A stretch of 64,000 nt of DNA from Escherichia coli. GTDB taxonomy: Bacteria > Pseudomonadota > Gammaproteobacteria > Enterobacterales > Enterobacteriaceae. Shown in pieces: positions 28,030 through 41,824 of this stretch. The DNA is taken from NCBI RefSeq assembly GCF_022846255.1, contig NZ_AP025682.1. The stretch is one strand, 5' to 3'. Below the pieces are notes generated by a model. It saw only the letters and a program-made list of their open reading frames with translations, was not told the origin of the DNA and did not search any database. Position numbers and translations under genes: made by a program. The first letter of the stretch is position 1, and each line of letters opens with the position of its first letter.

Positions 28030-29013
28030 GTGTTAAAAAAATGTCTTCCCCTGCTGTTGCTGTGCACAGCGCCTGTTTTCGCTAAACCTGTTCTGACTGT
28101 TTATACCTACGATTCCTTTGCCGCTGACTGGGGACCTGGTCCGGTAGTCAAAAAAGCCTTTGAAGCAGACTGTAATTGCGAACTGAAACTGGTGGCGCTG
28201 GAAGATGGCGTTTCGCTTCTCAACCGTCTGCGGATGGAAGGCAAAAACAGTAAAGCCGATGTGGTGCTGGGGCTGGATAACAATCTGTTAGACGCCGCCA
28301 GCAAAACAGGGCTGTTTGCTAAAAGCGGTGTGGCAGCGGAAGCCGTTAACGTTCCTGGCGGCTGGAATAATGACACTTTCGTACCGTATGATTACGGCTA
28401 TTTCGCCTTCGTCTATGACAAGAACAAACTGAAAAATCCGCCGCAAAGCCTGAAAGAACTGGTTGAGAGCGATCAAAACTGGCGGGTGATTTATGAAGAT
28501 CCACGTACCAGTACACCGGGGCTGGGTCTGTTGCTATGGATGCAAAAAGTCTATGGCGATAACGCCCCGCAAGCCTGGCAGAAACTGGCGAAGAAAACTG
28601 TCACGGTCACCAAAGGCTGGAGCGAAGCCTACGGCCTGTTTTTAAAAGGCGAAAGCGATCTGGTACTGAGTTACACCACCTCTCCGGCTTATCACATTCT
28701 CGAAGAGAAGAAAGATAACTACGCCGCCACAAACTTTATCGAAGGTCACTATCTGCAGGTGGAAGTTGCCGCCCGCACCGCTGCCAGCAAGCAGCCAGAG
28801 CTGGCGCAAAAATTCCTCCAGTTTATGGTTTCTCCGGCTTTTCAGAATGCGATCCCAACCGGCAACTGGATGTATCCGGTAGCAAACGTCACTCTGCCTG
28901 CAGGATTTGAACAATTGACCAAACCAGCCACCACACTAGAGTTCACACCCGCCGAAGTGGCGGCACAACGTCAGGCATGGATTAGCGAATGGCAACGCGC
29001 CGTCAGCCGTTAA
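28030..29013 (+). CDS. thiB: Thiamine ABC transporter periplasmic binding protein
   Basis: Track ORF 28018..29013; trimmed to in-frame GTG giving MLKKCLPLLLLCTAPVFA... (327 aa, signal peptide); GAGG about 7 nt upstream. Confidence 0.9.
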   Translation: MLKKCLPLLLLCTAPVFAKPVLTVYTYDSFAADWGPGPVVKKAFEADCNCELKLVALEDGVSLLNRLRMEGKNSKADVVLGLDNNLLDAASKTGLFAKSGVAAEAVNVPGGWNNDTFVPYDYGYFAFVYDKNKLKNPPQSLKELVESDQNWRVIYEDPRTSTPGLGLLLWMQKVYGDNAPQAWQKLAKKTVTVTKGWSEAYGLFLKGESDLVLSYTTSPAYHILEEKKDNYAATNFIEGHYLQVEVAARTAASKQPELAQKFLQFMVSPAFQNAIPTGNWMYPVANVTLPAGFEQLTKPATTLEFTPAEVAAQRQAWISEWQRAVSR

Positions 29014-38503: not shown

Positions 38504-38525
38504 GTAGCCGCATCAGGTATGTAAC

Positions 38526-38689
38526 GCCTGATGCGACGCTGACGCGTCTTATCAGGCCTACACGCTGCGATTTTGTAGGCCGGATAAGCAAAGCGCATCC
38601 GGCATTCACCGCCTGATGCGACGCCGACGCGTCTTATCAGGCCTACACGCTGCGATTTTGTAGGCCGGATAAGCAAAGCGCATCCGGCA
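38526..38689. repeat. Tandem BIME: two copies of a 79-bp unit, each containing two REP palindromes, in the araA-araD spacer
   Basis: Unit GCCTGATGCGACGC(T/C)GACGCGTCTTATCAGGCCTACACGCTGCGATTTTGTAGGCCGGATAAGCAAAGCGCATCCGGCA at 38526-38604 and 38611-38689 (1 mismatch). Confidence 0.85.
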
Positions 38690-38702
38690 CGAAGGAGTCA
38701 AC

Positions 38703-39398
38703 ATGTTAGAAGATCTCAAACGCCAGGTATTAGAAGCCAACCTGGCGCTGCCAAAACACAACCTGGTCACGCTCACCTGGGGCAATGTCAGCGCCGTTGA
38801 TCGCGGGCGCGGCGTCCTGGTGATCAAACCTTCCGGCGTCGACTACAGCATCATGACCGCTGACGATATGGTCGTGGTCAGCATCGAAACCGGTGAAGTG
38901 GTTGAAGGTACGAAAAAGCCCTCCTCCGACACGCCAACTCACCGGCTGCTCTATCAGGCATTCCCGTCTATTGGCGGCATTGTGCACACACACTCGCGCC
39001 ACGCCACCATCTGGGCGCAGGCGGGTCAGTCGATTCCAGCAACCGGTACCACCCACGCCGACTATTTCTACGGCACCATTCCCTGCACCCGCAAAATGAC
39101 CGACGCAGAAATCAACGGTGAATATGAGTGGGAAACCGGTAACGTCATCGTAGAAACCTTCGAAAAACAGGGTATCGATGCAGCGCAAATGCCCGGCGTG
39201 CTGGTCCATTCTCACGGCCCGTTTGCATGGGGCAAAAATGCCGAAGATGCGGTGCACAACGCCATCGTGCTGGAAGAAGTCGCTTATATGGGGATTTTCT
39301 GCCGCCAGCTTGCTCCGCAGTTACCGGATATGCAGCAAACGTTGCTGGATAAGCACTATCTGCGTAAGCATGGCGCAAAAGCCTATTACGGCCAGTAA
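38703..39398 (+). CDS. araD: L-ribulose-5-phosphate 4-epimerase
   Basis: Track ORF, 231 aa, [30 protein letters not shown]...; AGGAG SD upstream. Confidence 0.97.
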
Positions 39399-39402
39399 TG
39401 AC

Positions 39403-39418
39403 TGTATAAAACCACAGC
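39403..39418 (+). promoter_or_regulatory. LexA (SOS) box upstream of polB
   Basis: CTGTATAAAACCACAG fits CTGT-N8-ACAG; about 55 nt upstream of the polB GTG start. Confidence 0.75.
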
Positions 39419-39427
39419 CAGTCAACC

Positions 39428-39460
39428 AAAACCAGGCTATACTCAAGCCTGGTTTTTTAT
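39428..39460 (+). terminator. Hairpin plus T-run between araD and polB (candidate araBAD terminator)
   Basis: AACCAGGCTatactcaAGCCTGGTT followed by TTTTTTATT. Confidence 0.55.
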
Positions 39461-39472
39461 TGGATTTTCAGC

Positions 39473-41824
39473 GTGGCGCAGGCAGGTTTTATCTTAACCC
39501 GACACTGGCGGGACACCCCACAAGGGACCGAAGTTTCCTTCTGGCTGGCAACAGACAACGGGCCGTTGCAGGTTACGCTTGCGCCGCAAGAGTCCGTGGC
39601 ATTTATTCCCGCCGATCATGTTCCCCGCGCTCAGCATATTTTGCAGGGTGAACAAGGCTTTCGCCTGACGCCGCTGGCGTTAAAAGATTTTCACCGCCAG
39701 CCGGTGTATGGCCTTTACTGTCGCGCCCATCGCCAGTTGATGAATTACGAAAAGCGCCTGCGTGAAGGTGGCGTTACCGTCTACGAGGCCGATGTGCGCC
39801 CGCCAGAACGCTATCTGATGGAGCGGTTTATCACCTCGCCAGTGTGGGTCGAGGGTGATATGCGCAACGGCGCTATCGTTAATGCCCGTCTGAAACCGCA
39901 TCCCGACTATCGTCCGCCGCTCAAGTGGGTTTCTATTGATATTGAAACCACCCGCCACGGTGAGCTGTACTGCATCGGCCTGGAAGGTTGCGGGCAGCGT
40001 ATCGTTTATATGCTGGGGCCAGAGAATGGCGACGCCTCCGCGCTCGATTTTGAACTGGAATACGTCGCCAGCCGCCCGCTGCTACTGGAAAAACTTAACG
40101 CCTGGTTTGCGACTCATGATCCTGATGTGATCATCGGTTGGAACGTGGTGCAGTTCGATCTGCGAATGCTGCAAAAACATGCCGAGCGTTACCGTATTCC
40201 GCTGCGTCTGGGGCGTGATAACAGCGAGCTGGAGTGGCGCGAGCACGGCTTTAAAAACGGCGTATTTTTTGCTCAGGCCAAAGGGCGACTGATTATCGAC
40301 GGTATCGAGGCGCTGAAATCCGCGTTCTGGAATTTCTCTTCATTCTCGCTGGAAACCGTCGCTCAGGAGTTATTAGGCGAAGGAAAATCTATCGATAACC
40401 CGTGGGATCGAATGGACGAAATTGACCGCCGTTTCGCCGAAGATAAGCCTGCGCTGGCAACTTATAACCTGAAAGATTGCGAGCTGGTGACGCAGATCTT
40501 CCACAAAACTGAAATCATGCCGTTTTTGCTCGAACGGGCGACGGTGAACGGCCTGCCGGTAGATCGACACGGCGGTTCGGTGGCAGCGTTTGGTCATCTC
40601 TATTTTCCCCGTATGCATCGCGCTGGTTATGTCGCGCCTAATCTCGGCGAAGTGCCGCCGCACGCCAGCCCTGGCGGCTACGTGATGGATTCGCGACCTG
40701 GGCTTTATGATTCGGTGCTGGTGCTGGACTACAAAAGCCTGTACCCGTCGATCATCCGCACCTTTCTGATTGATCCCGTCGGACTGGTGGAAGGCATGGC
40801 GCAGCCTGATCCAGAGCACAGTACCGAAGGTTTTCTCGATGCCTGGTTCTCACGGGAGAAACATTGCCTGCCGGAGATTGTGACTAACATCTGGCACGGG
40901 CGCGATGAAGCCAAACGTCAGAGTAATAAGCCGCTTTCGCAGGCGCTGAAGATCATTATGAATGCCTTTTATGGTGTGCTCGGCACCACCGCCTGCCGTT
41001 TCTTCGATCCACGCCTGGCATCGTCGATCACCATGCGTGGTCATCAGATCATGCGGCAAACCAAAACGTTGATTGAAGCGCAGGGCTATGATGTTATCTA
41101 CGGCGATACCGACTCAACGTTTGTCTGGCTGAAAGGTGCACATTCGGAAGAAGAAGCAGCGAAAATCGGTCGTGCACTGGTGCAGCACGTTAACGCCTGG
41201 TGGGCGGAAACGCTGCAAAAACAACGGCTGACCAGCGCACTGGAACTGGAGTATGAAACCCATTTCTGCCGTTTTCTGATGCCAACCATTCGCGGGGCCG
41301 ATACCGGCAGCAAAAAGCGCTACGCCGGACTGATTCAGGAGGGCGACAAACAGCGGATGGTGTTTAAAGGGCTGGAAACCGTGCGCACCGACTGGACGCC
41401 GCTGGCCCAGCAGTTTCAGCAGGAGCTGTACCTGCGTATCTTCCGCAACGAGCCATATCAGGAATACGTGCGCGAAACCATCGACAAGCTGATGGCGGGC
41501 GAACTGGACACGCAGCTGGTTTACCGTAAACGCCTTCGCCGTCCTCTGAGCGAATATCAGCGTAATGTTCCGCCTCATGTACGCGCCGCTCGCCTTGCCG
41601 ATGAAGAAAACCATAAGCGCGGTCGCCCCTTGCAATATCAGAACCGCGGCACCATTAAGTACGTATGGACCACCAACGGCCCGGAGCCGCTGGACTACCA
41701 ACGTTCACCACTGGATTACGAACACTATCTGACCCGCCAGCTACAACCCGTGGCGGAGGGAATACTCCCTTTTATTGAGGATAATTTTGCTACACTTATG
41801 ACCGGGCAACTTGGGCTATTTTGA
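39473..41824 (+). CDS. polB: DNA polymerase II
   Basis: Track ORF, 783 aa, GTG start, [21 protein letters not shown]...; B-family polymerase motifs (YGDTDS). Confidence 0.97.

Follow-up and report, generated by a model that had tools for sequence, protein, structure and literature searches.

The 74-bp spacer between araD and polB of Escherichia coli very probably (a probability of roughly 85%) carries two overlapping signals which act on different transcripts, namely the terminator of the araBAD operon and, nested in it, the promoter of polB. The window analysed is a 64,000-nt stretch of the E. coli assembly GCF_022846255.1 (contig NZ_AP025682.1), with the feature at the araD-polB junction. 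According to the proposed mechanism, RNA polymerase arriving from araBAD would transcribe both arms of a hairpin (39428-39456) together with the U-run and would terminate as at an ordinary intrinsic terminator, whereby polB would be insulated from the strongly arabinose-induced operon. The polB promoter would be built into the same DNA, with its -10 in the hairpin loop and a weak -35 overlapping the right end of the LexA box. Transcription of polB would then start at about 39450, inside the 3' arm of the hairpin, giving an mRNA that begins with UGGUUUUUU. Since such an mRNA starts in the 3' arm and does not include the 5' arm, it would be unable to form the terminator, and there is no need for a promoter further upstream whose transcripts read through the hairpin. 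LexA bound at 39402-39417 would occupy the -35 and the region upstream of it, presumably repressing by steric hindrance, and would block initiation until DNA damage leads to LexA cleavage. The elements of the region are as follows, in window coordinates:

38703-39398, + strand: araD (L-ribulose-5-phosphate 4-epimerase, 231 aa), from the ORF list and the E. coli annotation under the match
39402-39417, no strand assigned: LexA operator (SOS box) CTGTATAAAACCACAG, from sequence, pattern search and conservation
39415-39420, + strand: putative weak -35-like hexamer CAGCCA (3 of 6 positions as in TTGACA), placed by sequence and by the positions of the -10 and the start
39428-39438, + strand: 5' arm of the terminator hairpin, AAAACCAGGCT, from folding; the same DNA is the spacer and extended -10 region of the polB promoter (-22 to -12)
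39438-39443, + strand: -10 hexamer of polB, TATACT, from the invariant TATA.T, its fixed distance from the box and mapped starts 7-8 nt downstream
39439-39445, + strand: hairpin loop ATACTCA, from folding
39446-39458, + strand: 3' arm AGCCTGGTTTT (39446-39456) and T-run TTTTTT (39453-39458), from folding, context conservation and the expression of araD and polB
39450, + strand: transcription start of polB (T), by homology with K-12 position 65803; the Klebsiella equivalent is 39451
39450-39472, + strand: polB leader, 23 nt, unstructured, from the fold of 39450-39510 (first 26 nt unpaired)
39473-41824, + strand: polB (DNA polymerase II, 783 aa) with a GTG start, from the ORF list; the same start is used in K-12 (NP_414602.1)

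The gene order in the ORF list is araB, araA, araD and polB, followed by a 968-aa ORF 3' of polB which we take to be rapA by synteny with the annotation of O157 Sakai. The last gene of araBAD is araD, with its stop codon TAA at 39396-39398. A 901-bp stretch over the araD-polB junction had matches in 5400 of 5426 complete E. coli genomes, with a best identity of 98.6%; the annotated features under the match were araD and polB, whose annotation was identical across E. coli genomes. The intergenic region has the same length in K-12 (65781-65854), where a window position x corresponds to 65780 + (39473 - x), and the two spacers differ by five substitutions, all located outside the LexA box, the stem and the -10. 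Elsewhere in the neighbourhood, the spacer between araA and araD (38504-38702) is 199 bp long here and in O157 Sakai and 284 bp in K-12 (published coordinates), so that an insertion or deletion of about 85 bp, possibly a repeat element, separates the strains. The 3' end of polB itself contains a Rho-dependent termination region at about 41701 (K-12 63552; table of Adams et al., 2021) and the main start of rapA/hepA at about 41665 (K-12 63588; 21 reads, 324-nt leader; Kim et al., 2012).

The sequence-only reading of this region had described a stable hairpin with a T-run between the SOS box and the GTG of polB, and this was confirmed by folding. The 11-bp hairpin at 39428-39456 reached -15.8 kcal/mol compared to -4.1 ± 2.2 kcal/mol in shuffled sequences (z = -5.4), and none of 200 shuffles was as stable. 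Its stem begins 30 nt past the TAA of araD, so the region combines a stable, GC-rich stem-loop and a U-run with a position just 3' of the stop codon of a co-directional gene. The T-run lies partly within the stem and is continued by ATT, whereby TTTTTTATT comes after the stem. A rule-based terminator scan did not list the hairpin at 39428-39456; in our reading, this is because the stem absorbs four of the Ts and leaves too few for the tail rule. An Rfam scan of 38900-40000 at E ≤ 1 returned no family, meaning that the element is not a known structured RNA. Covariation in the stem was weak, with 86.8% paired cells and only 3 double changes, and the covariation score was no better than that of shuffles; therefore, no compensatory evolution is claimed. 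Support for the structure comes from invariance, energy and context and not from compensatory change, and the maintenance of the stem through sequence invariance is understandable since the 5' arm is promoter DNA as well. Both arms contain CCWGG (Dcm) sites.

The response to L-arabinose is one of two indirect lines of evidence for termination at the hairpin. In EHEC EDL933 compared with and without L-arabinose (PMC11127945, Supplementary Data 1), the induction was 43-fold for araB, 59-fold for araA and 98-fold for araD, whereas polB increased only 1.65-fold (adjusted P 0.02). The spacer, box, hairpin and T-run of the window are the same in Sakai, a second O157:H7 strain. The drop from 98-fold to 1.65-fold across the spacer is indirect evidence that arabinose-induced transcription is halted before polB, and it agrees with the earlier assignment of the hairpin as the araBAD terminator; the exact point of termination would be the U-run. 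In the Term-seq tables of Adams et al. (2021), there was no entry for araD, as the ara genes were uninduced in the media used. The small rise of polB could reflect either a slight read-through or an indirect effect. If the terminator were leaky to the point that polB depended substantially on read-through from araBAD, the level of DNA polymerase II would be coupled to arabinose, and the significant 1.65-fold increase in EHEC would be its trace. Such a dependence is very improbable: compared to araBAD, which is induced 43- to 98-fold, polB hardly responds, it is transcribed from a conserved promoter of its own with a mapped start, and the effect may be indirect since 1187 genes changed in the same experiment.

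On the promoter side, the earlier reading had claimed a consensus SOS box right after the araD stop. A box is indeed present, beginning 3 nt past the stop codon and covering about -48 to -33 as counted from the start of polB transcription, although it starts at 39402, one base before the 39403 given earlier, and the word "consensus" was an overstatement. The core CTGT-N8-ACAG is perfect, in a 16-bp palindrome with an A/T-rich centre. However, the 20-mer GACTGTATAAAACCACAGCC agrees with TACTG(TA)5CAGTA at only 13 of 20 positions, which makes it a weak operator. The polB box is also said to have a high heterology index. The bare core pattern was found twice in the 64 kb compared to 0.71 matches expected, and 19 of 100 shuffles gave at least two, which is not significant. 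Because these chance statistics were unimpressive, conservation was relied on instead: CTGTA.A.A....CAG was invariant in the 80 aligned sequences, including loci with a different upstream neighbour, and the box is identical in K-12 and O157 Sakai. The element is a palindrome, conserved in orthologous promoters and placed at the promoter, where it overlaps the -35 position. As for regulation by LexA, reviews list polB among the genes with an SOS box and describe LexA binding as weak. The only other match to the core pattern in the window, CTGTTGCTGTGCACAG at 28054-28069, has a GC-rich centre and is thus probably a chance occurrence rather than a LexA site. Across the relatives, the form of the box tracks its context (alignment A2, columns 5-21), with CTGTATAAAACC(A/C)CAGC where araD is adjacent and CTGTACAAAA(T/A)A(A/T)CAGT in most loci with an insertion. 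The right half of the latter form is more symmetric and nearer to the consensus, which suggests that the operator may be stronger there.

The -10 of polB occupies the last base of the stem and the hairpin loop. TATA.T was invariant in the 80 aligned sequences; most species have the perfect TATAAT, and the window shares TATACT with K-12 and some others. The -10 follows the LexA box after exactly 20 nt in the window and in 77 of 79 related loci, and after 21 nt in the other two. The whole upstream region of polB aligned almost gap-free in the 79 usable loci, with the GG of CCAGG invariant as well. No hexamer close to TTGACA was found 16-18 bp before the -10; the best candidate, CAGCCA at 17 bp, takes its first three bases from the CAG of the LexA box. 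With such a weak -35, the promoter should rely mainly on the -10 region, and in our reading it is this weakness that, as a threshold artefact, kept a generic promoter scan from finding a site at the polB promoter. Promoters preferred by sigma-S typically have a C at -13 and a -10 of the CTATACT type. The window resembles them in having GGCTATACT with C at -13, and its sigma-S-type TATACT differs in this respect from the TATAAT of most relatives. These features would fit the contribution of RpoS, without which polB reportedly does not reach its full expression (Dapa et al., 2017, cited in a review).

The transcription start was located using published 5' ends (Kim et al., 2012; PMC3415461, supplementary file 2). 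The K-12 start of polB is at 65803 on the minus strand (2 reads, 23-nt leader), with an upstream 51-mer ending in ...GGCTATACTCAAGCCT, and that of Klebsiella pneumoniae is at 69499 (4 reads, 24-nt leader), with a 51-mer ending in ...GGCTATAATCAGGCCTG. Both lie inside the 3' arm, 7 nt past the -10 in K-12 and 8 nt in Klebsiella. Despite the small numbers of 2 and 4 reads, the starts match between K-12 and Klebsiella and also fit the position of the conserved hexamer; low counts are expected, as polB is repressed by LexA in exponential growth. The sequence-only reading had left two options for the polB promoter, either to overlap the hairpin or to read through it, and the first is the one that stands, with the -10 in the loop and the starts in the 3' arm. 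It had also named what would speak against its view, a start downstream of the hairpin with no LexA dependence; the start proved to lie in the hairpin itself, and reviews count polB among the LexA-regulated genes. At about 39307 (K-12 65946), the same data set assigns a further 5' end to polB, just as weak with 2 reads, which lies inside the araD coding region and 166 nt upstream of the GTG; its transcript would contain the full hairpin. Among other resources, the Cappable-seq tables had no TSS at K-12 65800-65805, the ROSE in vitro transcription tables had no polB entry, the sigma-factor network tables contained only an expression row for b0060, and full-text literature searching returned nothing specific on the polB promoter or the araD terminator. 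The first 26 nt of an RNA starting at 39450, the GTG included, are predicted to be unpaired, and a weak Shine-Dalgarno-like GGA is present at 39462-39464. Its leader being short and unstructured, its Shine-Dalgarno sequence weak and its start codon GTG, polB has features in keeping with a protein of low abundance.

The two signals were separated by comparing 80 loci from species-representative Enterobacteriaceae genomes, which were found with the PolB N-terminus (414 relatives detected) and of which 79 were usable. A hairpin was considered intact if 6/6 core pairs were present and its tail contained 5 T or more. This was the case in 54 of the 58 loci with araD directly upstream (spacer of 74-352 bp, some with inserted repeats), again in line with an araBAD terminator. 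In comparison, intact hairpins were present in 2 of 8 loci with an opposite-strand DUF4751 neighbour (Salmonella and several Citrobacter) and in 3 of 11 with a co-directional inserted gene (DUF218 or unknown). The Fisher test between the araD-adjacent and the opposite-strand group gave 6e-5, a value uncorrected for phylogeny, as is the context association as a whole; the hairpin losses are concentrated in a small number of clades. All these loci retain the LexA box, the 20-nt spacing and the -10, regardless of whether the hairpin is kept or lost. The Salmonella counterpart of the hairpin does not fold (-3.3 kcal/mol, z = -0.1). Where the polB-proximal hairpin was lost, araD often has a different strong hairpin with a T-run right after its stop, as in Pseudocitrobacter (-17.9 kcal/mol), Phytobacter (-20.8 kcal/mol) and C. 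sedlakii (-16.9 kcal/mol), and three DUF218 loci with the old hairpin (L014, L018 and L071) have no terminator after araD. Such a pattern is expected if the 3' arm and T-run serve transcription arriving from upstream, while the box and the -10 serve polB. There are exceptions: one locus (L067) lost the hairpin although araD is adjacent, and it is also missing from seven loci in which the gene inserted co-directionally ends directly ahead of the box.

The comparison also revealed the araD-polB junction as a variable insertion site in Enterobacteriaceae, with inserts of 740-1080 bp. A divergent DUF4751 gene lies between araD and polB in Salmonella and Citrobacter, a co-directional DUF218 gene is found there in several other genera, and unannotated ORFs occur in Pseudocitrobacter and at locus L028. 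The insert is on the opposite strand at L008, L010, L012, L015, L017 and L021-L023 and co-directional at L014, L018, L026, L043, L049, L053 and L071.

The conservation of the arms also allows another reading, in which polB has a second regulator that binds the inverted repeat CCAGGC-N8-GCCTGG as an operator centred on the -10, and the repeat is not an RNA terminator. Both arms are nearly invariant in sequence with little covariation, and the 5' arm is conserved even without its partner. Nevertheless, this is very improbable: a palindromic operator would need its two arms, whereas the 3' arm erodes without restraint where araD has ceased to be the neighbour, the stem is followed by a T-run as in intrinsic terminators, the expression step of 98-fold versus 1.65-fold falls across the repeat, and replacement terminators follow araD where the hairpin was lost. 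It is hardly credible that the hairpin is a leader attenuator damping polB transcripts from a promoter upstream of it, for, although the linear order of box, hairpin and GTG looks like a promoter-leader-terminator layout and TATAAA in the box (39405-39410) resembles a -10, the starts mapped in two species lie inside the 3' arm, so that the hairpin is not contained in the transcript, the leader from 39450 is unstructured, the corresponding -35 would fall in the coding end of araD or in unrelated inserted DNA differing between loci, and several lineages lost the hairpin but kept the box and TATAAT at the same spacing.

Within the preferred reading of a terminator with a nested promoter, the 5' arm deserves separate attention. 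Its AACCAGG (-20 to -14) was more than 90% conserved overall, and in the 12 loci without a 3' arm, where the latter was 46% conserved, AACCAGG(C/T) of the 5' arm was still conserved at 84% (window 39428-39437; alignment A2, columns 34-41). In comparison, the stretch of 12-13 nt that separates the 5' arm from the LexA box varies freely (38% conserved). The conservation of the 5' arm without its partner hints at a role of the polB promoter region -20 to -13 beyond hairpin pairing. The half-site AACCAGG may serve as a promoter element that has escaped recognition or may bind a factor; it might determine selectivity for sigma-S or make the promoter depend on Dcm methylation at the CCWGG sites.

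The overlap might also exceed an economical packing of two signals, either through such a role of the half-site or through a link of DNA polymerase II to nucleotide pools or carbon source, or both, but this is on the whole unlikely. The initially transcribed regions of pyrBI, codBA and upp give UTP-sensitive reiterative transcription. The terminator U-run is at the same time the initially transcribed sequence of polB; the transcript would begin with UGGUUUUUUAUU (39450-39461), i.e., a purine or two followed by the U-run, and by analogy with these three genes UTP-sensitive reiterative transcription could occur at polB. In addition, terminating araBAD polymerases could occlude the polB promoter. 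If true, reiterative transcription or occlusion would link the level of DNA polymerase II to nucleotide pools or to the carbon source.

The arrangement as such is already known. Textbooks and databases already cover the LexA site and promoter of polB and the end of araBAD; the first two were reportedly described in 1990, and the control region of E. coli polB (dinA) has been studied since that year. The K-12 region is the same locus, with a 74-bp spacer, an identical box and hairpin and a GTG start; the comparative dissection adds detail and not a new kind of element. The hairpin resembles the intrinsic terminators of enterobacterial operons in its GC-rich stem, 7-nt loop, U-run and the A-run upstream of the stem, as well as in its position about 30 nt past the stop of the last gene. 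Unlike the usual ones, it also supplies the promoter of the next gene with a -10, in the loop, and a start site, in the 3' arm, which places the 5' arm under extra sequence constraint and leaves almost no stem covariation. Another repair gene, uvrD, is similar in having an SOS box and then a terminator-like hairpin ahead of it; it is said to be under LexA control combined with a leader terminator or attenuation, with the hairpin inside the LexA-controlled transcript. This is the opposite of polB, where the start within the 3' arm means that the transcript never contains the hairpin.

For the organism, two same-direction units with opposite needs share 74 bp, a sugar operon induced about 100-fold and a damage-inducible polymerase made at low level. 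By having the -10 and start of the second promoter inside the terminator of the first unit, polB would be insulated without its own transcript being terminated. The case also calls for caution in annotation, since a hairpin that follows an operator and precedes a start codon is not necessarily a leader attenuator, and it is the position of the transcription start that decides. Finally, the comparative pattern in Enterobacteriaceae amounts to a small and clean natural experiment, in which the box and the -10 always travel with polB and the 3' arm is kept almost only where araD, or an unterminated insert, reads in.
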